Positions 14,608 to 63,282 of a stretch of 64,000 bases of DNA are shown piece after piece. The stretch comes from Candidatus Aenigmatarchaeota archaeon (GTDB taxonomy: Archaea > Aenigmatarchaeota > Aenigmatarchaeia > GW2011-AR5): NCBI GenBank assembly GCA_016198685.1, contig JACQID010000004.1, positions 117,864 to 181,863 of the forward strand. The letters are read 5' to 3'. Every line of letters begins with the position of its first letter. The stretch's first letter is position 1. The notes beneath the pieces are model-generated. The model was not told where the DNA came from, ran no database searches, and worked only from the letters and a program-made list of their open reading frames with translations. Both the position numbers and the translations under genes were made by a program.

Positions 14608-14778
14608 ATGTCTTATAGCGTGGCATCCAAAGTAAAGGAGCTCATAAAAGCAAGGGAGATGAACTGTGCAGGCGACTTCTGTGACGCCCTGGATAAAATG
14701 ATTGAACAGAAAATTGACAGGGCCGTGGAAAGAGCCAAAGCCAATGACAGAAAGACCGTTAGAGGAAGCGACCTCTGA
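14608..14778 (+). CDS. 56-aa histone-fold-like DNA-binding protein candidate (below track cutoff)
   Basis: SD GGGAGG upstream. [56 protein letters not shown] aligns with the archaeal histone pattern (...AKHAGRKTIKAEDI). Confidence 0.4.
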   Translation: MSYSVASKVKELIKAREMNCAGDFCDALDKMIEQKIDRAVERAKANDRKTVRGSDL

Positions 14779-14870
14779 GGGCATATTTTTTCCTTTTTTG
14801 CTTCATTCTTGACGTATAAATATTTTCCTCCAAAATTTACTATAAAAACCTTCGCAGGGATGAGTTTCGG

Positions 14871-17117
14871 ATGGTAATGTTTTTACAAAACGGGCTTATG
14901 GGCCATATTATGTCTCTTGCCAAAGTACAGCCTCATTTACCAGCACTGCTTTCATGCGACGAAGAGGGCAGAATCATCCATACGATTGACTATTCGGACC
15001 TTTATGAAAAGCTGCAAAATATAGGTTCCTGGTTCGAGTCCATAAAATTGTCCAGCGGAGATACAGTTGCGCTTGCCATGCATAACAGGGCAGAGTTGCT
15101 GCTCGTCAGCTGGGCCGCATGGTCTCTTGGCATAATAACAGCTCCGCTTGATGTAAGAAGAGATGCCGAAGAGCAGCATCTGTATAAAATAGGACTTACC
15201 AAGCCGAAGCTTCTATTGGGAGATAAAAAATTTTCCGGTCTCATGAGGAATTTTGAAGACATTGAAAGCATTTCATCGCTTTCTGCGGCCAAGCCGGTTG
15301 CGTGGAAAAAAGGAATCGAGCATCCGGCGTTGATACTTTTTACATCCGGAACAACTTCCCATCCGAAAGGCGCAAAGCTCAGCCTCAAGAACCTCATGAC
15401 TAATGCCGACGGCATCAGAGACTGGTTCAAGATTACAGAGAAAGACAGGTTTCTTGTTTTGCTGCCGCTGCATCATATAAATTCCACGAGTTTCACGCTT
15501 GCGACGATATTAGGCGGGGCAAGCATAGCGATACCGCCTGCTTATTCGAGCTCAAAATTCTGGTCACAACTGGCAAATAGCCAAAGCACATTTACCTCTA
15601 TTGTGCCGACAATATGCTTCGACCAGCTATCACAGGAGTCTGCTTTCAAATCAGAAAATCTGCATGTTACAAGGATACAGATAGGCTCTGCCCCGGTCAT
15701 CGCGGGCGACGCAAAGAAGTTCATTGAGATGTACAAAATACCCCTTTATCAGGGATATGGGCAGACGGAAACTGCCCTGCGCGTCACAGGAGTGCCTCTT
15801 GATTTGGATAAGAAAAGTTATAGCCGTCTCGTCGATGAAAATAGCATAGGCAAGCCGATGAAATGGGCGGATGTAATAATAATGGGGAAGGACGGAAAAG
15901 CTCTGCGTGAAGGTGAAGAAGGCGAGCTTGCAGTAAAGGGAGATGCAATAATGGAGGGATATCTTGGGAATCAGAATAACAACGATGTCTTTAGAAATGG
16001 GTACTTCCTTACAGGTGATATAGGCTTCTACAATAAAATAAATGGGGAGTCATTTTTCTTCCTTAAGGGCAGATCCAAAGAGATAATAATCAAGGGCGGA
16101 GTCAATATTTCTCCGGCGTCCGTGGAAGATCGTTTGAAGCAATGCGATTCTGCTATAGACCAGGTCTATGTGATAGGCCTGCCTGACAGGCGATACGGCG
16201 AAGAAGTTGCTGCCGTCGTCTGCTGGAAGAAGGGCGAAGATGCAGTAAAGGCCGAAGCCAAACTAAGGTACAGGCTTATGAATCCGCTTCCAAACATAAG
16301 GTCATTCGAGGTTCCGCAGTATATAACGACTATAAACGCTTCGGAACTGCCTATGACATCGACAGGCAAAGTTCAGCGTTCTGTAATCAAAAAAATGATC
16401 GCTCCTGAAAAATTCCGGCATGTAAACACGATAGTTAAGAGCGAAAAATACGAATTCATGCGCCTTGCTGCTTACGATAAGCCACGAATGAAAGAGGCGC
16501 TTGAGCTTTTCAATCGCTGCTGGCAGCCGCTTAGTATTGATGCCCAGAAATTCCATGAGCATGTAAGCAATGGTTTTGTCATGGTATGCGTGCCTAAGAA
16601 AGGCGGCGCAATTGAAAGCATGATAAGCCTGCTGCGCACAGATCTTACAGACAAAGAACTTTCAAAATCAACATATGATAAACTGACAGGAAATTTGTCA
16701 ATGTCAACAAGCAAGCTTTACGGGAAGAACATAGTCTGCGTTTCCATATGCAGCTCTGCCTATGTGCCTCAAGAGCCAAAACAAGCCAAACCGCCGTCTG
16801 TTTCTTACATGGAAAAATATCTTGAAGCAGGCAAGGACCCTGTTTATGGATTCCATGCAAAAAAGAAAGGCGGCATAGAAGGTGCCAAGCTGCTCTCTTT
16901 GTTGCCGAATGCGAGACCGGATGACAAGCTTTCCTTGGGCTATTGCATGCTTCTTGAATATGCGCGAATACCTAATGCGCCTTGCATACCAGAAAGTGCA
17001 TCGCCTGCCTCGCAGCTTATAGAAGCTGTCATGGAATTTGCAAGGCAGCAGGACGTGGAGCGCGTATTTGCTTTCTCAAGGCCCGCAGGGGCATCCGAAT
17101 ATTTTAGCAGGAAATAA
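14871..17117 (+). CDS. AMP-dependent synthetase/ligase (ANL family) fused to a ~250-aa C-terminal domain of unknown function
   Basis: AMP-binding motif LFTSGTTSHPKGA, GYGQTE and a KGG...K C-terminal ANL motif fall within the first ~500 aa. Residues ~500-748 have no recognised motif. TATAAAAA lies ~20 nt upstream. Confidence 0.75.
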   Translation: MVMFLQNGLMGHIMSLAKVQPHLPALLSCDEEGRIIHTIDYSDLYEKLQNIGSWFESIKLSSGDTVALAMHNRAELLLVSWAAWSLGIITAPLDVRRDAEEQHLYKIGLTKPKLLLGDKKFSGLMRNFEDIESISSLSAAKPVAWKKGIEHPALILFTSGTTSHPKGAKLSLKNLMTNADGIRDWFKITEKDRFLVLLPLHHINSTSFTLATILGGASIAIPPAYSSSKFWSQLANSQSTFTSIVPTICFDQLSQESAFKSENLHVTRIQIGSAPVIAGDAKKFIEMYKIPLYQGYGQTETALRVTGVPLDLDKKSYSRLVDENSIGKPMKWADVIIMGKDGKALREGEEGELAVKGDAIMEGYLGNQNNNDVFRNGYFLTGDIGFYNKINGESFFFLKGRSKEIIIKGGVNISPASVEDRLKQCDSAIDQVYVIGLPDRRYGEEVAAVVCWKKGEDAVKAEAKLRYRLMNPLPNIRSFEVPQYITTINASELPMTSTGKVQRSVIKKMIAPEKFRHVNTIVKSEKYEFMRLAAYDKPRMKEALELFNRCWQPLSIDAQKFHEHVSNGFVMVCVPKKGGAIESMISLLRTDLTDKELSKSTYDKLTGNLSMSTSKLYGKNIVCVSICSSAYVPQEPKQAKPPSVSYMEKYLEAGKDPVYGFHAKKKGGIEGAKLLSLLPNARPDDKLSLGYCMLLEYARIPNAPCIPESASPASQLIEAVMEFARQQDVERVFAFSRPAGASEYFSRK

Positions 17118-17163: not shown

Positions 17164-17352
17164 TTAGTCGAGGTCCGTATCTATATCATCCAGAGTATTC
17201 TGAAGACTCTCAACGTTAGTGGCTATATCACCCACTGCTTCGGAAGCCTGTTCCTGCGTTTTCACGGGGTTGTCGTTGCCTATGCAGCCGCTCATGAAAA
17301 CGAGAGAACTGATCACAACGAGCAGCATGAAAACAGCTTTTACGTTCATCAT
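17164..17352 (-). CDS. small lipoprotein-like secreted protein
   Basis: MMNVKAVFMLLVVISSLVFMSGC has a signal peptide plus lipobox-like Cys. ATG overlaps the stop of the upstream large gene (ATGA). Confidence 0.45.
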   Translation of the reverse strand: MMNVKAVFMLLVVISSLVFMSGCIGNDNPVKTQEQASEAVGDIATNVESLQNTLDDIDTDLD

Positions 17353-19523
17353 ATTTCACCTTGTTCATTTATACTTGGCTCTGAAACAACGGGTTCTGAA
17401 GGCTCCCTTCGTGCAGGCGGTTGCGGGTTATTGAAGCCGGATTGAGGCTGGCCCTGGAAAGGCTGTGGCTGAGAGAAGCTTTCACCCTCAAAACCTTGGT
17501 CAGGTGCCGGGTTCCTCGGCCTGAAATTATCTCCCTGAGCTGGGTACTGGATACCCGGACCTTGATTATCTATTGGCATGTAAGGATCTCTGTAATTGTC
17601 GCCGAACTCATCGCTAAAACCGGGTTGCCTGAAGTTTCCAGGTGGAGGCCTGCCGAATTGCTGATCCTGCAGGTCAGTTCTGAATTCATCATCTCTTCTC
17701 ATCCCCTGCTGGCTTCTGTAATCTTGTGGAATTGGCTGATACTGGTCATATTGATTGTTATATTGGAACTGGCTTCTTCCTTCTATCAATGCGGTCAATC
17801 CCTGTTTCGCTTCAGGCGGAAGTCGGTTGCCAAAAGTATCCAGGCACTTTTTGGCGTTTTCGGCATTTTCAAAGCATGCCTGCTTGCAATCCTCGCCCTG
17901 GCATACTCCTTCAACTGCACCGCCTGCCTGAACGCCTTCCTGTTTCATCATCTCGTAAAGTGGCCCTTCACAGTAAGGCAAAACGTCGGTTTCAGGATCT
18001 CTTATGCCCAGGCTGTATTTCTCTATTTTGCATGTCATCGACTGGCTCTCGCTTCCTTGCGTCATGGTTGCCTGAAGTATGCACTTGTTATCTTCGAGTC
18101 CTGTAATCTCAACTGTAGGCCCGTTTCGTCCTTCAGGCAGGAATTTCACGGGGCTGCATATGCGGATTGCCTTGTCAAAGCACCTCTCATCAGTGCCGCA
18201 GTCACTGCCGCTCCCCGAAACTATATTTTGCACATCATCGTTTGAGCTAAGCATCACGTAAACTATGTCTTTTATGGCGACATCCTTGAGATATTTTATG
18301 TCATGTTTTATTTCTGTCATGTCTTCAATCGTAAGGGTGTCAAGCCTTTCTTTCATCTTGTCCTTTATGTCTTGAACGTTGCCCTTGGCAGATTGGAACA
18401 TGTCGGCAACCCTTCTGAATCTGTTCTCATCTGTTGAACCCGTTGATTTATAATAATCAGCGACATCATCTGCCTGCTTGGAAAGTTTATCAAGCTCGAC
18501 CACTAATTTTTCCAATTTGAATGCTATTGACAGTACTTCGGTTGAGTCCGGCACGTTGGAAGGTCTTTCCACGTAGACATCGTTCTCGTCACCCTGACGG
18601 ACGCATTCAGCAAAACTTACGCAGCCGTTGCGGTCTCTTTTGACTATCATCTCGCCGCCGTTCTGATGGCAAGTGCTATACGCAGCATCTTCGACATTCT
18701 GCCTGCAATAATTCTGTTCTGCGCATCTGTAGAAAATGCAGCCGCTTTGGTCAAAATCTTTTGTTATGCTCAGGCCGCGAGAGCTGCACTCATTTTCAGC
18801 CGTTACGCGGGATTGCTGAGTGCTTGGGCATATCTTATTTTGTTCTGTCTGTATGCATGATGCAACGCCGCATCCGTTTTCCTGTCTTACAACGCCCTTG
18901 AGACCTGAAGACTCGCAGCTTCTGAGTGTCGTATCTATCTGTTCGCGGGAGGGGCATTGATCATATTTCTTAAATAGCTGGCCCTGCAGTTGCCCGCCTT
19001 GGTCGAATTGGCAATAGAACATATCGCATCCGTTAGGCGATTTGGAAAATTGGGGCATTCCGCCGCCGTTCCTGCATGCATCAATGCTTTCTTTGGGTGC
19101 AGGCTGGCAGGAGACCGCTCCTTCGCATATGACTCTTACAAAACCGGTCTCGTCACGTTCTTCTCTGCATCCGGGAGGCGGACCTCTGTGCTCAGGAACA
19201 GTTTGGGGAGGCATGCCTTCAGTATCACCACCTTCTTGAGTTCCGTCAGGAGTATCTGCCTCTTGTCTGCTATTTGCATCTTCCGTATCTCCGGCAGGCA
19301 TTTCTTCAGAGGAAGGTTCGGAAATATCATTCGTTGATTCTTCATTTGCAGGCTCCGAAGGTGGTGTTGATTCTTGAGGCGTTGATTCTTCATTTGCAGG
19401 CTCCGAAGGTGGTGTTGATTCTGCTGGCGGCTCTGCAGTTTCGGTCTGGGCAGACGAAACAGAAAGAATTAATATCGCAGCGGCAAATAGAATGAATATG
19501 CTTTTTGTGGAGTTATTGGCCAT
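17349..19523 (-). CDS. large secreted cysteine-repeat protein with P/E/S/T repeats, a coiled-coil segment and a Q/N/P/Y-rich C-terminal low-complexity tail
   Basis: Start moved to ATG 19523 (MANNSTKSIFILFAAAILILSVSSAQT signal peptide). Four ~35-aa repeats of type C..NGC...[FY].C..Q. The final ~140 aa are rich in Q, N, P, G, F, D and Y. No C-terminal TM. Confidence 0.7.
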   Translation of the reverse strand: MANNSTKSIFILFAAAILILSVSSAQTETAEPPAESTPPSEPANEESTPQESTPPSEPANEESTNDISEPSSEEMPAGDTEDANSRQEADTPDGTQEGGDTEGMPPQTVPEHRGPPPGCREERDETGFVRVICEGAVSCQPAPKESIDACRNGGGMPQFSKSPNGCDMFYCQFDQGGQLQGQLFKKYDQCPSREQIDTTLRSCESSGLKGVVRQENGCGVASCIQTEQNKICPSTQQSRVTAENECSSRGLSITKDFDQSGCIFYRCAEQNYCRQNVEDAAYSTCHQNGGEMIVKRDRNGCVSFAECVRQGDENDVYVERPSNVPDSTEVLSIAFKLEKLVVELDKLSKQADDVADYYKSTGSTDENRFRRVADMFQSAKGNVQDIKDKMKERLDTLTIEDMTEIKHDIKYLKDVAIKDIVYVMLSSNDDVQNIVSGSGSDCGTDERCFDKAIRICSPVKFLPEGRNGPTVEITGLEDNKCILQATMTQGSESQSMTCKIEKYSLGIRDPETDVLPYCEGPLYEMMKQEGVQAGGAVEGVCQGEDCKQACFENAENAKKCLDTFGNRLPPEAKQGLTALIEGRSQFQYNNQYDQYQPIPQDYRSQQGMRRDDEFRTDLQDQQFGRPPPGNFRQPGFSDEFGDNYRDPYMPIDNQGPGIQYPAQGDNFRPRNPAPDQGFEGESFSQPQPFQGQPQSGFNNPQPPARREPSEPVVSEPSINEQGEI
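19332..19427. repeat. 2 x 48-bp tandem repeat inside the secreted protein gene
   Basis: CGTTGATTCTTCATTTGCAGGCTCCGAAGGTGGTGTTGATTCTTGAGG repeated from 19332 and 19380. It encodes the PPSEPANEESTPQEST repeat. Confidence 0.7.
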
Positions 19524-19569
19524 ACAGAGTTTTGGATTTGAGTGATATATATAGTTATCGTGATTTGGC

Positions 19570-20049
19570 ATGAAAACTGAATTGATTGCGCTTGCAGGGA
19601 TTGGATTATTTTTACTTATTGTTTTGGTTCGCCCGACCGCTCCTGCTTCTTTGCCGGAGATATCAGTCGAGGGTTTCGTGCCCGTGAAAATAGAAATCAA
19701 CGGAAGCGATATGATATTGTCAGGCGAATGCAGAAGCATCTTAATGGCAGTAAGCGAACATCAGGCGCTTTCCATCGCAAGTGCATTGAACAACGAATAT
19801 TATATCAGGCCGCTCACGCACGATCTTATGAGAGACATATTTGAGAATTATAAGATAGAACTGAATTCGGCAAGAATAGATTCTTTTACAGACGGTGTAT
19901 ATACTGCCAAGATATACGTGACCAAGGATTCAAAAATTCTTGAAATGGATGCAAGGCCAACCGATGCGGCAGGAATTGCATTGAGGATGGGAGTGCCGCT
20001 CTATTTCAATGAAGATCTATTGAAGATCAACGGTGAAAAAATATGCTGA
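19570..20049 (+). CDS. membrane-anchored bifunctional-nuclease (BFN/DUF151) domain protein
   Basis: N-terminal TM helix. HQALSIASAL, RPLTHDLM, ARIDSFTDGVYTAKI and EMDARPTDAAGIALRMGVPLY match the DUF151 pattern. Confidence 0.55.
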   Translation: MKTELIALAGIGLFLLIVLVRPTAPASLPEISVEGFVPVKIEINGSDMILSGECRSILMAVSEHQALSIASALNNEYYIRPLTHDLMRDIFENYKIELNSARIDSFTDGVYTAKIYVTKDSKILEMDARPTDAAGIALRMGVPLYFNEDLLKINGEKIC

Positions 20050-23438: not shown

Positions 23439-25013
23439 TTATTTGGCGTTTTCAGCGAACCTCATGGATCTTTTTTTCCTGTTGTAGGTGACAGCAAACC
23501 TATGCGTCTCGTCTCTTATTGATCTTACGAGAAGCATCATCGAAGAGTTCTTGGGAAAGCGCATGGGTATCTCGTTCTCCGGCGTGAAGATCTCTTCATC
23601 TTTTTTAGCAAGTGATATTATCGGTATTTTAAGACCGAGATCTTTCAATGCGCCAAGCGCGGAATTCAGCTGCCCCGGCCCGCCGTCTATGATTATAAGA
23701 TCCGGCATAGAGTCATTCTGGTCGCGGAGTCTGCGGTATCTCCTGTGCACCACTTCTTTCATGGCTGCAAAATCGTCACTTTTTCCGCTAAAGGTCTTTA
23801 TTTCAAACTTCCTATAACCCTGCTTATCCTTTGCGCCTTCGGTGAATCTCACCATTGAAGCGACAATGTAGTCATATCCAAGATTAGAGATATCAAAGCA
23901 TTCAATGATTCTTGGCAGTGAAGGCAAATTCAGCTTCTCTTGGAGTTCATTCAACGCCTTATTGCCTATTTTCAGCGCGGCATTCTTTTCTGCAATGGCT
24001 ACAAGTGCCATGTTTTCTTTTGTTTCCGGCGGAAGAAGTCTTATGCTTCTTCCTGACAATTTTTCAAAATATGATTGAAGCGTCTCATCGTCCCAGAATT
24101 TCCTGTTGACTATTATCTCATCGGGGATTTCATTACTAAGATAGTAGGTTTTTATGAAATTCTCAAAGACCTCATTTTCAGATTCTTCAAAATGAGGCGT
24201 TATCATGTACTCATTTTTTCCCGAAATAACGCCGCGCTTTATATAAAATACCTCGAAGATGAAGCGTTCCCCGTCTTGAATACCGGCAATGACGTCCTGA
24301 TCGACCTTTTTGGCGATATTTATTTTCCGTTTTCCTGATACCCTGTCTATTATCTCTATCTGGCGTCTTTTTTCCAGGGCAAGCTCATACTTCATGGATT
24401 GGGAAGATGCTTTAAGTTCTTCATTGAGCTTGTTTCTCAAAGGCGATGTATCCCCGGAAAGAAATTCTATGGCATGACGAACCTGGTCTAGATATTGTTC
24501 ATGGCTGACCAGTTTGATGCATGGAGCTGTGCAGATTCCGATATAATAGTTAAGGCATGCTTTTCTTGGCAGTTTTTTGCAGGTGCGAAGCCGTAATGAC
24601 TTGACCAGAAGCTCTATTGTATCATCTCTTAGCCTTGAATCAATATACGGGCCGAAATAAGTTCCGTCTCCCTTGGCGTTCCTTGATATCATAACGCGCG
24701 GAAATTTTTCGTTGGTTATCTTGATATAAGCGTAGGTCTTTGAATCCTTGAGGGATATGTTATATTTCGGCCAGTGCTTTTTTATAAGCTGGTTCTCAAG
24801 AAGCAGAGCTTCAGTCTCGTTATTGACGACTATGAATTCTATGTCGTTTATTTTATGCACAAGTGCCTGAGTTTTTGCATTTTTCTTCCCTGAAAAATAA
24901 GATAAGACCCGCTTTTTAAGTATCTTGGCTTTGCCTATGTAGATTATTTTCCCAGACGAGTCCTTGAACAGGTAAACTCCGGGGTCATCCGGAACGTTCG
25001 GTATCATAATCAT
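23439..25013 (-). CDS. uvrC: excinuclease ABC subunit C (no C-terminal HhH region)
   Basis: GIY-YIG N-terminus GVYLFKDSSGKIIYIGKAKILKKRV ... ENQLIKKHWPKYNI. 524 aa. Stop is 3 nt before uvrA start. Confidence 0.85.
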   Translation of the reverse strand: MIMIPNVPDDPGVYLFKDSSGKIIYIGKAKILKKRVLSYFSGKKNAKTQALVHKINDIEFIVVNNETEALLLENQLIKKHWPKYNISLKDSKTYAYIKITNEKFPRVMISRNAKGDGTYFGPYIDSRLRDDTIELLVKSLRLRTCKKLPRKACLNYYIGICTAPCIKLVSHEQYLDQVRHAIEFLSGDTSPLRNKLNEELKASSQSMKYELALEKRRQIEIIDRVSGKRKINIAKKVDQDVIAGIQDGERFIFEVFYIKRGVISGKNEYMITPHFEESENEVFENFIKTYYLSNEIPDEIIVNRKFWDDETLQSYFEKLSGRSIRLLPPETKENMALVAIAEKNAALKIGNKALNELQEKLNLPSLPRIIECFDISNLGYDYIVASMVRFTEGAKDKQGYRKFEIKTFSGKSDDFAAMKEVVHRRYRRLRDQNDSMPDLIIIDGGPGQLNSALGALKDLGLKIPIISLAKKDEEIFTPENEIPMRFPKNSSMMLLVRSIRDETHRFAVTYNRKKRSMRFAENAK

Positions 25014-25016
25014 GAT

Positions 25017-27866
25017 TTAGAGCATTCGCTTTAAAAATTGGCCAGTATAAGACGCAGGTTCCATGGCAACTTCTTCCGGCGTTCCCATGGCTATTATTCT
25101 TCCTCCATCTCTTCCGCCTTCCGGGCCCATGTCTATCAGGTAATCGCAGGATTTTACGATATCAAGATTATGCTCGATGACAAGCACGCTGCTTCCTTTT
25201 TCAACCAGCCTATTGAGTACCATTATGAGCTTTCTTACATCCTCAAAATGCAATCCGGTGGTGGGTTCATCAAGCATATAGATCGTATCCCCTGTTTTTT
25301 GCTTTGATAGTTCTCTTGTCAGTTTTATTCTCTGCGCTTCGCCTCCTGAAAGCGTATTGGAGCTTTGCCCTAGCTTGATGTATCCCAGACCAACGTCGTA
25401 TAATGTCTTTATTTTTCTCGACATACCCGTGTGATTTTCAAAGAATTTCGTGGCGTCTTCAACGCTCATGTCAAGAACATCAGATATGTTTTTTTCTTTG
25501 TAGGTGATTGCAAGAGTCTCCTTGTTGTACCGTTTGCCTTTGCAGTCTTCACATTGCACATAAACATCGGGTAAAAAGTTCATTTCTATTTTTATTACGC
25601 CGTCCCCTTTGCAGCTCTCGCAGCGCCCGCCTTTGACATTGAAGGAGAATCTCCCTTCTTTGTATCCTTTGGCGCGGGCGTCTTTGGTGGAAGAAAAAAT
25701 CTTTCGGATTTCATCGAATATTTTGGTATAAGTAGCTGGATTGGATCTCGGTGTTTTTCCTATAGGATCTTGGTCTATGACTATCACATTTTTGACCGAT
25801 TTCGGGATTTCTATGCCGTTGTTTTTCCCTATTTTCTCGGCGATCATGCCGGCATGCTTCTTCAGTAAGGGAACAAGCGTCTGGTTTATCAGGGTCGATT
25901 TTCCGGATCCTGATACACCCGTTATTCCGCAAAGCACGCCTGTCGGCAACGAAACGTATATGTTTTTCAGATTATTCTCGGAAGCGCCTTTTACAACTAT
26001 GAAGTCTTTTGGTTCTCTTCTGTGCTCTGGTATCTCTATTTTTGTATGTCCTGAAAGGTAGCGGCCGGTTATGCTGTTCTTGTCTTTGGCTATATCATCA
26101 GGTGTTCCCTGTGAGGCAACATGACCTCCATGCACGCCTGCGCCGGGTCCCATGTCAATTATATAATCCGCGGCCTTTATCGTGTCGTAATCGTGTTCGA
26201 CAACTATGAGCGTATTTCCTATGTCCCTGAGCCTCTGAAGGGTTGCAATAAGCTTGTTATTGTCCCTTTGATGCAGCCCTATGGAGGGCTCATCAAGAAT
26301 GTAAAGAACGCCCATGAGGTTCGATCCTATCTGCGTTGCAAGACGTATTCGCTGCGCTTCGCCGCCCGATAGGGTCTTTGAGCTTCTCGAAAGCGACAGG
26401 TAGCCAAGGCCTACGTTTGTAAGAAAGCTGATTCTGTCATTGATTTCCTTGAGTATCTGCTTTGATATTATCTTGTCTTTTTCCGAAAGGCTCTCTGCAA
26501 GATGGATGAAAAATTTGGCGCAAGCATCCAGGTCCATCTCCGTAATGTCAATTATGGATTTTCCTGCTATGCTGACCGAAAGCACGGTTTCCTTGAGCCT
26601 CTTTCCTTCGCATACGCGGCATAGCTTCCCTATCATGAATCTTTCAAGGTCTTCCTTTCTTTCGTCGGATTCTGTCTGTTTGTACAGTCTTAGCGTTTGG
26701 GGTATTATTCCTTCCCAGCCGTTTTCCATGTTCATTGAAGCGCCGTTGCTCCATCTGCCGTCTATTCTTTCAGTCGTTCCATTAAGAAGTACATCGAGTT
26801 GTTTTTTTGAAAATGCAGATATGGGGGTGAAAATGTCGAATCCGAATTTTTTCCCGACAACAGCAATCTGCTGGCATCTCCATTGCAAATCCATTCTCCC
26901 ATAGACCGCAATGGTGCCATCAATGATAGATTTGCTTTTATCCGGAATCAAGAGATCCTGCGATATTTCCAGCGTTTCTCCGAGGCCCAAGCACCCCGCG
27001 CACGCGCCGAAAGGGGAATTAAATGAGAACATTCTGGGTTCTAGCTGCTGGAACAAAACTTCAGGATGCTTGGGGCACGCGCCGAAAGTTGAATAGATTG
27101 TCTCACCTGCGCCTCGTTGTATCTCTTTTGTTTTCTTTTGTATTTTAGCCGGGTCAAGAATTATTACGGTTCCCTTGCCGGCATGCACCGCCTGCTCAAC
27201 GTCTTCCGATATTCTGGAGCGATTATCGTCGCTGGCCTCCAGCCTGTCCACAACCGCTTCTATCCAGTGCTTTTCATAGCGAGCTAATTTCATATTATCT
27301 TTTATCTCATCAAGCCTGCATATTTCTCCGTCAATGCGCACGCGGCTGAATCCGTCTGATAACATTCCTTCGAAAATTTTCTCATGGGCTCCTTTAACTC
27401 CGCTAATCAGCGGAGCAAGAATTATAATCTCCTTTTTTTCAGACATGATCAGGTTTACTATGTTTTCCACTGACTGCGGCCTGATTTGGGATTTGCACTT
27501 AGGGCAGTGTATTGTCCCTATGCGTGCAAATAGAAGCCTGAGATAATCATATATCTCAGTTACCGTGCCTACCGTTGATCTTGGGTTTTTTGAGGTCGTT
27601 TTTTGCTCTATGGATATTGCAGGCGAAAGCCCATCTATCAAATCTATGTCCGGTTTATTCATCAATCCCAAGAACTGGCGGGCATATGCAGAAAGTGATT
27701 CGACATACCTGCGCTGGCCTTCGGCATATATTGTGTCAAACGCCAAAGTAGACTTCCCCGAGCCTGACATGCCCGTTATTACGACAAGCTTGTTCCTTGG
27801 TATTTCCACGTTTATGTTCTTCAGGTTGTGTTCCCTTGCTCCTCTCACTACTATTTTATCCAGCAT
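25017..27866 (-). CDS. uvrA: excinuclease ABC subunit A
   Basis: Two ABC ATPase modules ([28 protein letters not shown] x2). Zn-finger cysteines. 949 aa. Confidence 0.95.
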
Positions 27867-27870
27867 AATA

Positions 27871-29793
27871 TCAATTCTTTATTGAACTCTCAAGTTCTTG
27901 CATCGCATCGCGCAGTTCTATGGCCCGCTCAAAATTAAGATTTTCCGCTGCAGTCCTCATCTCGGCTTCCAGCTCGATGATTTTTCTTTCAATATCAATT
28001 CTTGCCATGTGCTTGAATCCTTTTATTTTGCCGGGCTTGACTATGTTTTTGATGATCGTTTCAGGGGTTATGCCATGTTTTTTGTTATATGCCTGCTGCA
28101 TGCGCCTTCGTTCATCTGTTATCTTTACCGCCCGCCTTATCGAATCAGTCATCTGGTCGGCAAAAAGTATTACACGACCGTTTATGTTTCTTGCGGCCCT
28201 TCCTATGGTTTGGATCAGGCTCCTTTCGTTTCTTAAAAATCCTTCTTTGTCGGCATCCAGTATGCATACGAGCGAGACTTCTGGTATATCCAGTCCTTCT
28301 CGCAAAAGATTTATTCCGACAAGAATGTCAAACTCACCCGACCTAAGCTGCCGTATTATCTCTATCCTATCAAGGCTTTCGATATCGGAGTGCATGTACC
28401 GAACCTTCAGCCCTTCTTTTGCAAGATAATCTGTCAGATCCTCAGCCATCCTTTTTGTCAGTGTCGTGATAAGAATCCTTTCACCTTTTCCAATGGCTTT
28501 TCGCATTTCATTCACCATGTAAGGTATATGGTCTTTTATCGGCCTCACGGATACCTCCGGATCAATCAAGCCTGTCGGACGTATTATCAGGTTCACAACT
28601 TGCCCTGACATCTGCAGTTCATATTCGCCGGGAGTTGCTGAAACAAAGATTGTATGGCGGAAGTACTGCTCAAACTCCGGGAATTTAAGCGGGCGGTTGT
28701 CAAATGCGCATGGCAGTCTGAATCCAAAATCGACAAGATTCTTTTTGCGCGAATAATCCCCTTTATACATGGCTCTAGACTGGGGTAGTGTCTGATGGCT
28801 TTCATCTATTATCAGAAGAAAATCCTTCGGGAAATAATCAAGGAGAACAAATGGTGGTTGGCCCTTTTTGCGATTATCGAAATGCCTCGAATAATTTTCT
28901 ATTCCGCTGCAATAACCGACTTCTTTTATCATTTCTATGTCGTATTTGACGCGTTTTTCAAGCCGTTGTGCTTCAATGCCAGACAATTCCGGCAGTCTTT
29001 CTGCAAGCTCTTTTTTAATCTCTTCTATGGCGGCTTCATGCTTTTGTTCCGGCGTTGCAAACTGTTTTGCAGGAAAAATTGTTGCACTTTCGAGGACATT
29101 GATCACGCTTCCCGTTATGCCGTCCATCTCGGATATCTTATCAACAGCGTTTCCGAACAGCTCTATTCGTGCTATGTTATTCCCGTACGCCGGGATGATG
29201 TCTATTACGTCGCCCCTTGCGCGGAATTTTCCCGGCTCAAGGTACTGATCGCTTCTTTCATACTGCATCTCTATCAATTTTCTTATCAAGTCATTTCTCG
29301 TAATCTTGTCGTTCTTTACCAGCGTAAGCGAGAGGCTCTTGAAGTCATCAGGATTGCCAAGGCCGTATATGCAGGATATTGAGGCGACAATTATAGTATC
29401 CGGCCTTGATATGAGGGAGGTCACGGCCTTCAGCCTCATTTTTTCTATCTGTTCGTTGATTGTCGCATCTTTCTCTATATACAAGTCGGTTGTGGGCACA
29501 TAACTCTCCGGCTGATAATAATCATAATATGAAATGAAATACTCCACGCAGTTTTTGGGAAACATTTCCTTAAGCTCTGCATATAGCTGAGCTGCGAGTG
29601 TTTTGTTGTGTGCAAGTACAAGGGTAGGCTTTTGTATCCTGCCTATTAAATTAGCCATGACAAATGTCTTCCCGCTTCCCGTTATGCCGAGCAATGTCTG
29701 CATGGGGTATTTTCCGTAGCCTTCGTGAAGCTTTTCTATGGCCTCTGGCTGCCCTCCTGCCGGCTTGAACGGCGAGTGCAGTTCGAATTTCAT
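27871..29793 (-). CDS. uvrB: excinuclease ABC subunit B
   Basis: Start moved to ATG 29793 ([22 protein letters not shown]). Helicase motifs GITGSGKT and DESH. Confidence 0.95.
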
Positions 29794-29858
29794 GCGATCG
29801 CAATAATATAAAATATAATTAAGCTTAAACGTCGATTCGGGACAATAATGCAAGGAAC

Positions 29859-36085: not shown

Positions 36086-36238
36086 TGGGGTCGGGAGGAT
36101 TTGAACCCCCATTAGCTGGTTTCTTCTAAATCATCGCCGCTTGCGCGGCTCTTAGCTCCAAAAGAGCCTCTCGGCCTGTCTTTTTACGGAAAGACCGGGA
36201 CTGGAGCCAGCGATCCTGCCTGGTTAGACTACAACCCC
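36086..36238 (-). tRNA. tRNA-Trp (CCA) with ~80-nt intron at canonical 37/38 position
   Basis: Acceptor GGGGTTG/CGACCCC. Anticodon stem GCTGG/CCAGC. Loop CTCCAG|A. T-arm GGGGGTTCAAATCCTCC. Intron contains hairpins GGCTCTT...AAGAGCC and GCCGC-GCAA-GCGGC. Confidence 0.75.
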
Positions 36239-62826: not shown

Positions 62827-62933
62827 TGGGCCCGACGGGATTCGAACCCGCGACAGTCGGCTTTCTGCGGGCCCGGTGCCCTGCTGGCACAGGCTTAAAA
62901 GGCCGATGCTCTACCAGGCTGAGCTACAGGCCC
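62827..62933 (-). tRNA. tRNA-Lys (UUU) with 33-nt intron at canonical 37/38 position
   Basis: GGGCCTG-TA-GCTCAGCCTGGTAGAGC-A-TCGGC-CTTTTA|intron|A-GCCGA-CTGTC-GCGGGTTCGAATCCCGT-CGGGCCC-A. All stems pair. Confidence 0.75.
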
Positions 62934-63164: not shown

Positions 63165-63282
63165 GGCCAGCAACGTTCTGGTGTTCCCGGCTTGTAGGCC
63201 AGTACTTGCCATGTCGCAGGAGAGCTTGACTTCCAAGTTCGGAATGGGTTTGGGTATCGCCTCTCCGCTATGATCGCCGACC
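63165..63282 (-). rRNA. 5S ribosomal RNA (solitary)
   Basis: GGTCGGCGATCATAGCGGAGAGG...CCCATTCCGAACTTGGAAGTCAAGCTCTCC...GTACTGG...GGGAACACCAGAACGTTGCTGGCC. Helix I pairs 5' GGTCGGC with 3' GCTGGCC. 118 nt. Confidence 0.8.

Follow-up and report, generated by a model that had tools for sequence, protein, structure and literature searches.

Predicted ANL adenylate-forming and segment-swapped, decarboxylase-type GNAT domains are fused in one protein of DPANN archaea and candidate phyla radiation bacteria

We describe a gene of an Aenigmatarchaeota archaeon, located at 14871..17117 of a 64,000-nucleotide stretch of contig JACQID010000004.1 (the whole stretch is referred to as the window), which joins an ANL-type adenylate-forming half to a C-terminal domain of about 235 residues. 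An earlier note, made from the sequence of the window, had read the gene as an AMP-dependent ligase with an extension that might be acyltransferase-like, and suggested that the fusion would channel an adenylated acid to a second reaction. Profile searches and comparisons of a structure model place the extension in the GNAT fold, on the branch of the decarboxylases CurA GNAT_L, GphF and SxtA DC, and alignments indicate that two of its internal blocks have exchanged places. A rare family, found mostly in DPANN archaea and in bacteria of the candidate phyla radiation (CPR)/Patescibacteria, has this fusion of ANL and GNAT-decarboxylase domains as its usual architecture. Channelling to a second reaction is plausible; the second reaction is more likely to be decarboxylation of a thioester than acyl transfer, and the channelled intermediate is more likely to be a coenzyme A (CoA) thioester than an adenylate. 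Our favoured reading, which we hold tentatively, is a bifunctional enzyme that would activate an acid and then decarboxylate it.

Gene structure and the ANL half

The gene consists of one open reading frame (ORF) of 748 aa, which the ORF listing shows to begin with ATG and to run without an internal stop. The features of its first two thirds are as follows.

14871..17117, forward: whole gene, fusion of ANL and permuted GNAT-like decarboxylase-type domains; single ORF, stop codon within the end coordinate
14922..15965, forward: ANL N-terminal (adenylation) domain, residues 18-365; Pfam PF00501, 182.1 bits (cut-off 29.9)
15342-15371, forward: A3 motif TSGTTSHPKG, residues 158-167
15462-15488, forward: A4 motif LPLHHINST
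15753-15770, forward: A5 motif GYGQTE, residues 295-300
Residues 380-385: A7 motif LTGDIG
16068-16115, forward: A8 hinge motif GRSKEIIIKGGVNISP, residues 400-415, directly upstream of the C-terminal subdomain
16125..16379, forward: ANL C-terminal subdomain, residues 419-503; Pfam PF13193 at 419-500, 28.8 bits (cut-off 24.5)
Residues 494-503: A10 motif PMTSTGKVQR, with the catalytic Lys500

The AMP-binding and AMP-binding_C models of Pfam both score above their cut-offs, and the motifs quoted in the earlier note (TSGTTSHPKG, GYGQTE and the A10 lysine) were all found. Judged by Pfam and by the core motifs A3, A5, A7, A8 and A10, residues ~18-505 are a complete ANL adenylate-forming enzyme. The nearest solved structures of this half are oxalyl-CoA synthetases, FadD13, feruloyl-CoA synthetase, MenE and MatB, with matches in the PDB to 6QJZ (E 5e-48) and 5IE0 (E 4e-45), which are the oxalyl-CoA synthetases, and to 4FUQ (E 1e-34). 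The oxalyl-CoA synthetase/MatB group (AAE3/Pcs60 included) and the window protein have in common the Ser that corresponds to Ser289 of AtAAE3. They differ in the A4 motif, which is LPLFHVHGL in MatB and oxalyl-CoA synthetases and is family-specific in the window protein, and in the C-terminal GNAT domain, which MatB and the oxalyl-CoA synthetases lack.

The C-terminal domain resembles GNAT-fold decarboxylases

Residues ~505-748 (~240 residues), in which the earlier note recognised no motif, are indeed unmatched in Pfam, even at E <= 1 and including every Acetyltransf_* model, and in NCBIfam. A search of PDB sequences with the single sequence returned nothing significant. The parts of this domain are listed here from homology and from the model discussed below.

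16401..17114, forward: GNAT-fold decarboxylase-type domain, residues 511-748 (~235 aa)
16509..16754, forward: N-terminal half of the GNAT fold, with alpha1 (FNRCW, N548..W551), beta2-beta3 and beta4, from the secondary structure of the model
16728-16754, forward: strand beta4, NIVCVSICS
16791..16973, forward: block B (alpha4-beta6-beta7), residues 641-701, with DPVYGFH, from the hidden Markov model (HMM) alignment to CurA, SxtA and GphF
16974..17114, forward: block A, moved to the C-terminus, residues 702-748, with a motif-A-like loop, alpha3, beta5 and a short terminal helix
16998-17051, forward: motif-A-like loop and helix alpha3, ASPASQLIEAVMEFARQQ
Within block A: strand beta5, which ends at Ser736 and is followed by the invariant Arg737

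A 32-sequence alignment of the domain was the basis of both a family profile and the final AlphaFold2 model. The profile matched very few PDB sequences, namely the SxtA methyltransferase-decarboxylase (7UCI/7UCL, E 3.4e-6), CurA GNAT_L (2REE/2REF, E 1.6e-4) and the GphF GNAT-like decarboxylase (6MFC, E 0.1); no ordinary acetyltransferase was found below E = 1 in this search of PDB sequences. The model (pLDDT 95.2, pTM 0.91) supersedes an earlier one from 3 sequences, for which pLDDT was only 70.8. An independent Foldseek search gave five matches at E <= 1e-3, all of them CurA, SxtA or GphF chains (6e-6 to 2.6e-5), and the next matches were ~100-fold weaker. The TM-scores of the Foldseek matches were modest (0.42-0.47) and their E-values significant. 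Comparison of the C-terminal domain with individual relatives gave the following figures, which are reproduced in the order given and carry no labels.

SxtA DC: 12.9; 166; 20%
CurA: 12.3; 152; 20%
GphF: 12.1; 146; 21%
Ordinary GNATs: <= 11.7; ~110; 7-16%
Human malonyl-CoA decarboxylase: 10.7; 150; 15%

Because Foldseek and the structure and profile comparisons all favour CurA, SxtA and GphF, we assign the modelled domain to the decarboxylase branch of the GNAT fold (the CurA GNAT_L/GphF/SxtA DC clade). The suggestion of an acyltransferase-like domain, which had been drawn from the stretch QLIEAVMEFARQQDVERVFAFS, thus holds for the fold, as this stretch is the GNAT motif-A helix alpha3 with strand beta5. 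It does not hold for the closest relatives, which in both the sequence and the predicted structure are decarboxylases (CurA GNAT_L, GphF, SxtA DC and malonyl-CoA decarboxylase).

The hallmark of GNAT-like decarboxylases is a His-Ser/Thr dyad (H389/T355 in CurA, H423/S329 in human malonyl-CoA decarboxylase, MCD), the His being held by a Tyr (Y419 and Y456, respectively), and these enzymes carry His where acetyltransferases have their general-acid Tyr (PMC3701320). The corresponding residues of the window protein, with conservation counted over 75 family sequences, are listed below; CurA numbering was taken from the HMM alignments as the 2REE chain numbering plus 215.

16854-16856, forward: His662 (catalytic-type), equivalent to CurA H389; 74/75
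16914-16916, forward: Arg682, equivalent to CurA R404; 69/75
16959-16961, forward: Tyr697, equivalent to CurA Y419; 75/75
17076-17078, forward: Ser736, equivalent to CurA T355; Ser or Thr in 74/75
Residue 660: Gly, at the position of CurA R387, which binds the CoA 3'-phosphate; Arg or Lys in 42/75

By this alignment the His-Ser/Thr-Tyr signature of the decarboxylases is conserved in the family, and from homology H662, S736 and Y697 would be expected to converge in space. Besides these, F661, D685 and G690 are present in all 75 sequences and R737 in 74 of them, and within the 32-sequence alignment F661, H662, D685, G690, Y697 and R737 (numbering of the full protein) are invariant. Just before helix alpha3 the alignment shows a motif-A-like loop, (R/A)-S-x-(G/A)-x-Q-L, as in CoA-binding GNATs. 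In the HMM alignment the alpha1/beta2-beta4 segment corresponds to the 'E..CW' block of CurA, SxtA and GphF, with N548 conserved in 64/75 relatives and W551 in 68/75. Considered as a canonical GNAT N-acetyltransferase, the domain was rejected on three grounds: it has no Pfam match, its block order is swapped, and His occupies the position of the general-acid Tyr.

Two blocks of the domain are exchanged

CurA and GphF have the segment 'aS.G.QLiEaa...A...g...V.a.(S/T)' (motif A, alpha3, beta5) before the segment 'DP..RFH...GA...RPxD...Y' (alpha4, beta6, beta7). In the window family, the motif A/alpha3/beta5 block follows the alpha4/beta6/beta7 block and lies at the extreme C-terminus. With the native order, hhalign aligned the family to canonical-order proteins in two out-of-order matches (query 26-193 to template 12-229, score 171; query 207-242 to template 120-155, score 54). 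When the blocks were swapped back in silico, a single alignment of 202 columns was obtained, with a score of 228 and E 1.3e-35. Since the alignment is out of order natively and single after the swap, we read the C-terminal domain as a segment-swapped GNAT. This topology is probably the reason for both the failure of the Pfam models and the modest Foldseek TM-scores.

Canonical order is seen in three distant relatives, P0091-P0093. One of them, P0091, carries VYAYSRPS in the canonical position and scores above the cut-off of Pfam Acetyltransf_1, a model that the window domain fails to match. Together with P0100-P0107 (labelled 'GNAT superfamily N-acetyltransferase' by JGI), P0091-P0093 are the closest stand-alone relatives that retain the ordinary GNAT order. 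They share the motifs VYAYSRP and RPEDxxxxGYNVLLEYP with the window family, from which they differ in their canonical order, their length of ~225-240 aa and the lack of an ANL fusion. The archaeal proteins of the P0105/P0091 group may represent the un-permuted form from which the window domain arose. One member of this group was also observed as a stand-alone gene (~230 aa, weak Acetyltransf_1 match) at 8001-8702 of L032, a 599-kb archaeal contig on which eRF1 and Alba genes lie close by, and no ANL gene is in its vicinity.

Family size, hosts and stand-alone forms

A word-indexed search of 5.8 billion proteins returned 2 relatives of the C-terminal part for the single sequence and 7 for the profile. 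When 1.84 billion cluster representatives were searched exhaustively with an HMM, only 95 proteins came up, 77 of them at E <= 1e-10, so that the domain is not a common extension of ANL enzymes. The domain-architecture search proposed in the earlier note gave AMP-binding and AMP-binding_C followed by an unassigned domain in 10/10 full-length representatives. Scanning one genome per GTDB species with a 6-sequence alignment as query yielded 29 loci, in 26 of which the domain lies within a single ORF of 729-883 aa that bears the ANL motifs; the fusion is thus no local accident, nor the product of a missed stop, the possibility raised in the same note. The family comprises three groups.

Group 1: full-length proteins of 690-820 aa (~15 proteins)
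Group 2: stand-alone proteins of ~240 aa
Group 3: stand-alone proteins of ~290-395 aa that carry an insertion and are extended at the C-terminus

Among DPANN archaea, the hosts are Aenigmatarchaeota and Woesearchaeota, and among CPR/Patescibacteria they are Kaiser-, Wildermuth-, Levyi-, Sacchari-, Peri-, Giovannoni-, Nomura- and Parcubacteria. A few further metagenome-assembled genomes (MAGs) belong, by label only, to Gammaproteobacteria, Pseudomonadales and Methanosarcinales. The source names of family members are 'hypothetical protein'.

With regard to the stand-alone forms, P0002 (L002:1-780; 239 aa, 41% identical, TTG start) has upstream stops in its own frame. A second frame runs open from the edge of the contig to nt 68-70, overlapping the P0002 start, and the upstream sequence amounts to 57 nt only. 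P0002 appears to be a genuine stand-alone copy and the sole one among L002, L034, L035 and L036. In L035 (P0097, 242 aa) the same fused frame is present but is interrupted by an in-frame TAA in the A10 motif, and L034 and L036 are low-coverage or fragmented contigs. The TAA of L035 (1018-1023 of a Patescibacteria contig at ~3x coverage) replaces the codon of the catalytic lysine, …LPKTSTG*VQRVV…, and is either an error of sequencing or the mark of a pseudogene that lost its activity at the key residue. P0001 (L001, a metagenome scaffold of 2246 bp) combines an aldehyde-oxidase/xanthine-dehydrogenase hammerhead N-terminus with the ANL C-subdomain and the GNAT-like domain. Its junction, near nt 1040-1050, falls at RYIGEEVAAVV, which is similar to motifs of both families, and GC changes there from ~0.60 to ~0.53; we discarded it as a new architecture because it is a probable assembly chimera.

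The subgroup of 285-395 aa (P0042, P0052, P0060, P0063, P0068, P0070, P0076, P0080, P0083 and P0084) has a helical insertion of ~40-60 residues between beta4 and the FH block and a C-terminal extension past the SRP motif, and none of it reaches a Pfam cut-off.

Gene context

In the window, the fusion gene is preceded by a 420-nt gap that holds only a 56-aa ORF and is followed by a convergent gene, and it looks monocistronic. The 56-aa ORF (14608-14778, forward), between the JAB gene and the fusion, has no Pfam match. Two TATA-like boxes were read from the sequence.

14841..14848, forward: TATA-like box TATAAAAA, ~26-30 nt before the ATG
14815-14822: second TATA-like box

It is possible that the TATA-like box serves as an archaeal promoter and that the mRNA is leaderless or near-leaderless. 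The window order of JAB, fusion, a large convergent protein without a Pfam match, BFN, Lon_C, PPDK and UvrC is also the order in another Aenigmatarchaeota contig (L003), where the C-terminal domain of the fusion is 79% identical to that of the window. This places the window in a DPANN archaeon of that group.

Three related CPR loci have the fusion within a string of overlapping or abutting genes of the UDP-N-acetylglucosamine (UDP-GlcNAc) pathway, in two internal orders, and the GlmU-like genes of these operons encode their own hexapeptide acetyltransferase domain. Other loci have the fusion beside cell-envelope genes.

L005: glmS, CofD/YvcK, HAD, fusion, glmU-like
L006: glmS, CofD/YvcK, fusion, glmU-like
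L010: glmS, fusion, CofD/YvcK, glmU-like
L020: Wzm ABC-2 permease, fusion, Wzt ATPase, GT2
L028: fusion adjoins an SLT transglycosylase
L025: fusion adjoins a PdaC-like protein
Kaiserbacteria-type synteny group: fusion adjoins ddl

We do not read a functional linkage from the Kaiserbacteria-type loci. Besides ddl, their neighbours are housekeeping genes (UvrC, CarA, RRM, RmuC, RecR, DnaB), and the shared order is therefore better seen as inherited synteny. In a MAG labelled Gammaproteobacteria, a fusion of PPAT (cytidylyltransferase-like) and DUF359 (L009:6849-7874) lies two genes upstream of the ANL-GNAT fusion and covers the last two steps of CoA synthesis. Given that DUF359 is the archaeal-type dephospho-CoA kinase, the label of this MAG is doubtful.

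Proposed activity and alternatives

In the activity that we tentatively propose, the ANL half would adenylate a small acid with a second carboxyl beta to the first (malonate or an alkyl-malonate) and then thioesterify it, most probably to CoA. The C-terminal half, of CurA/GphF/SxtA type, would bind the malonyl-type thioester; His662 and Ser736 would stabilise the enolate as CO2 leaves, with Tyr697 holding the His and Arg682 nearby, and acetyl-CoA or another short acyl-CoA would result, available for the N-acetylation of amino sugars and for other needs. GlmU and the synthesis of cell-envelope glycans might draw on it in CPR bacteria. We infer the substrate, CoA as the carrier, the decarboxylation and the physiological role alike.

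Several points weigh against this proposal. The ANL half reaches no NCBIfam equivalog cut-off: many acyl-CoA ligase models match it, all below threshold, with the best at 278 bits (cut-off 476), and an assignment as a MatB equivalog was rejected because the malonyl-CoA synthase model PRK07514 gives 186.2 bits (cut-off 558). The oxalate-binding pair of AtAAE3 is Ser289 and His319 (PMC8905533), and an oxalyl-CoA synthetase was rejected as well, as Ser289 is matched (IGSAPV) but the oxalate-specific His319 is replaced by Leu in GQTETALRV. A conserved basic residue for the second carboxylate was not identified in the ANL acyl pocket, so that a dicarboxylate substrate is a guess, and the ANL substrate cannot be assigned from the sequence. 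In the C-terminal half, Gly660 stands in place of the Arg with which CurA (Arg387) contacts the CoA 3'-phosphate. Arg404 of CurA has been linked to acetyl transfer, and true malonyl-CoA decarboxylases have Asp there (PMC3701320); the family keeps Arg (Arg682) at this position. The PKS-type (polyketide synthase-type) relatives CurA, GphF and SxtA DC are carrier-protein-dependent (PMC11685415), with substrates bound to an acyl carrier protein (ACP) and not to CoA as proposed here. The glmS/glmU context is limited to the three related CPR loci and does not extend to the window, and no operon was seen around the fusion in the window or in its Aenigmatarchaeota relative. Lastly, the source of malonate in DPANN and CPR cells is not obvious, and activating acetate would cost the same ATP as the malonate route.

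Some of this evidence would be consistent with an acyl-transferring fusion, in which an acyl-CoA or acyl-AMP made by the ANL half serves the GNAT-like half as donor; the acyl group, perhaps decarboxylated first, would go to an amino sugar (glucosamine 6-phosphate or glucosamine 1-phosphate), a peptidoglycan precursor, a thiol or a similar acceptor. We consider this unlikely, yet it is the main rival: the fold is that of GNAT, the neighbours include amino-sugar and cell-envelope genes (glmS/glmU, Wzm/Wzt/GT2, ddl, SLT, PdaC-like), CurA GNAT_L has been reported to be an acetyl S-transferase as well as a decarboxylase (PMC3701320), and the transfer-implicated Arg is retained in most of the family, unlike in malonyl-CoA decarboxylases. 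However, the Pfam acetyltransferase models are unmatched, the general-acid Tyr is replaced by His with the full decarboxylase signature conserved, and ordinary N-acyltransferases fall below the decarboxylases in every comparison. The acetyltransferase domain carried by the GlmU-like genes of the CPR operons also means that a second N-acetyltransferase is not needed there. A regulatory or inactive C-terminal domain, which would leave the ANL product untouched and act through Pat-like acylation of the ANL lysine, as a sensor of CoA or acyl-CoA, or in oligomerisation, seems highly improbable. GNAT protein acetyltransferases do regulate ANL enzymes, by acetylation of the A10 lysine, and stand-alone copies of the domain exist (e.g., P0002, P0026, P0033). 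Nonetheless, the active-site set of His, Ser/Thr, Tyr and Arg is conserved down to 22-30% identity, which argues for retained catalysis of the decarboxylase type, and the resemblance to Pat-type GNATs never exceeds that to decarboxylases.

Decarboxylation might instead act on a carrier protein, the ANL half loading malonate or methylmalonate on an ACP encoded elsewhere and the GNAT-like half decarboxylating the ACP-bound acyl group as in PKS loading modules, so that acetyl-ACP would be made for GlmU or for the initiation of lipids or polyketides. Acyl-ACP synthetases and FAALs are ANL enzymes that load carrier proteins. The carrier-protein dependence of CurA, GphF and SxtA DC speaks for this version, as does the preference of E. 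coli GlmU for acetyl-ACP, supplied by a malonyl-ACP decarboxylase (PMC8666670). On the other side, phmmer searches with the ACPs of E. coli and B. subtilis found no ACP-like ORF at E <= 10, either in the 64-kb window or within ±10 kb at the 29 loci, and PKS or fatty-acid synthase (FAS) genes are absent among the annotated neighbours of the fusion. CPR and DPANN organisms also generally lack fatty-acid synthesis. We regard the carrier-protein version as quite unlikely, and a CoA thioester remains our preferred, tentative substrate for the decarboxylation.

Relation to known systems and implications

Both halves come from known superfamilies, and the decarboxylase branch of GNAT is already known. 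Four features appear to be undescribed: that ANL and GNAT-decarboxylase domains are fused, that the topology is block-swapped, that the family is nearly confined to DPANN and CPR, and that the gene is placed in glmS-glmU operons. In the literature searched we found no description of a natural MatB/decarboxylase fusion or of an ANL and GNAT-decarboxylase fusion. CurA GNAT_L (2REE/2REF), GphF (6MFC) and SxtA MT-DC (7UCI) act inside PKS modules, where they often lie between a methyltransferase or adaptor and an ACP, whereas the partner of the window domain is an ANL ligase with no ACP nearby. The window domain also differs from them in the transfer of motif A, alpha3 and beta5 to the C-terminus, in an insertion of 6-7 residues (KPKGG) after the His, and in its hosts, which are DPANN and CPR for the window family and cyanobacteria or myxobacteria for the PKS-type domains. 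Membership in the malonyl-CoA decarboxylases proper (MCD/MatA; human 2YGW, Cupriavidus 4KS9) was rejected: their sequence match to the window domain is undetectable, their N-terminal helical oligomerisation domain is absent from the window protein, and they have the canonical block order and an Asp where the window family and CurA have Arg.

The Mad system of Proteobacteria (MadA/MadB) follows the same proposed logic, from a malonyl thioester to an acetyl donor for GlmU and the cell envelope (PMC8666670). GlmU consumes an acetyl thioester. The Mad decarboxylase that supplies the donor has an unrelated fold, the hot-dog (Pfam PF09500), and the GNAT domain present in MadA does not serve as the decarboxylase. 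The Mad substrate is bound to ACP, and no ANL is fused. Whaley et al. ask whether a different gene family does the same job in other bacteria (PMC8666670). A wider proposal, which we offer as doubtful, is that DPANN and CPR share, probably via horizontal transfer, a dedicated one-polypeptide route from a scavenged malonate-type acid to acetyl-CoA or a short acyl-CoA, built from an ANL ligase and a segment-swapped GNAT decarboxylase; in CPR the enzyme would close the gap in acetyl-donor supply for GlmU and UDP-GlcNAc and would be the gene family about which Whaley et al. asked.

If the activity that we favour is correct, the protein would be a natural single-chain enzyme from a malonate-type acid to acyl-CoA, in which the logic of MatB and MatA is fused. 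A GNAT-like decarboxylase would then have left the polyketide loading module, its only known setting, for the primary metabolism of the smallest known cells. Given the glmS-yvcK-glmU context, it would also offer a testable answer to the source of the acetyl donor for amino-sugar and envelope synthesis in reduced metabolisms. The domain, as aligned, represents a clear, quantifiable, non-collinear rearrangement of GNAT, with two internal blocks exchanged and the active-site residues retained, which is of relevance to protein evolution. A Pfam or NCBIfam model for it would annotate a family that is now blank or 'hypothetical'.

Other features of the window

The protein that converges on the fusion gene (17349-19739, reverse) has 796 aa, Cys-rich repeats, a Pro/Gln-rich tail and no Pfam match, and may be secreted or at the surface; its counterpart at the same position in L003 has 752 aa. 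A complete uvrC-uvrA-uvrB string of bacterial type lies at 23439-29853 (reverse) in this DPANN archaeal window. Other proteins encoded in the window include Orc1/Cdc6, HerA, AlaX-like, JAB, bifunctional-nuclease, Lon_C and PPDK proteins, which together with intron-containing tRNA genes mark it as archaeal. Rfam features at 62827-62933, 36086-36238 and 63165-63281 (all reverse) represent two tRNA genes and a 5S rRNA gene. The two tRNA genes, of 107 and 153 nt, contain introns and were detected by Rfam but not by ARAGORN.

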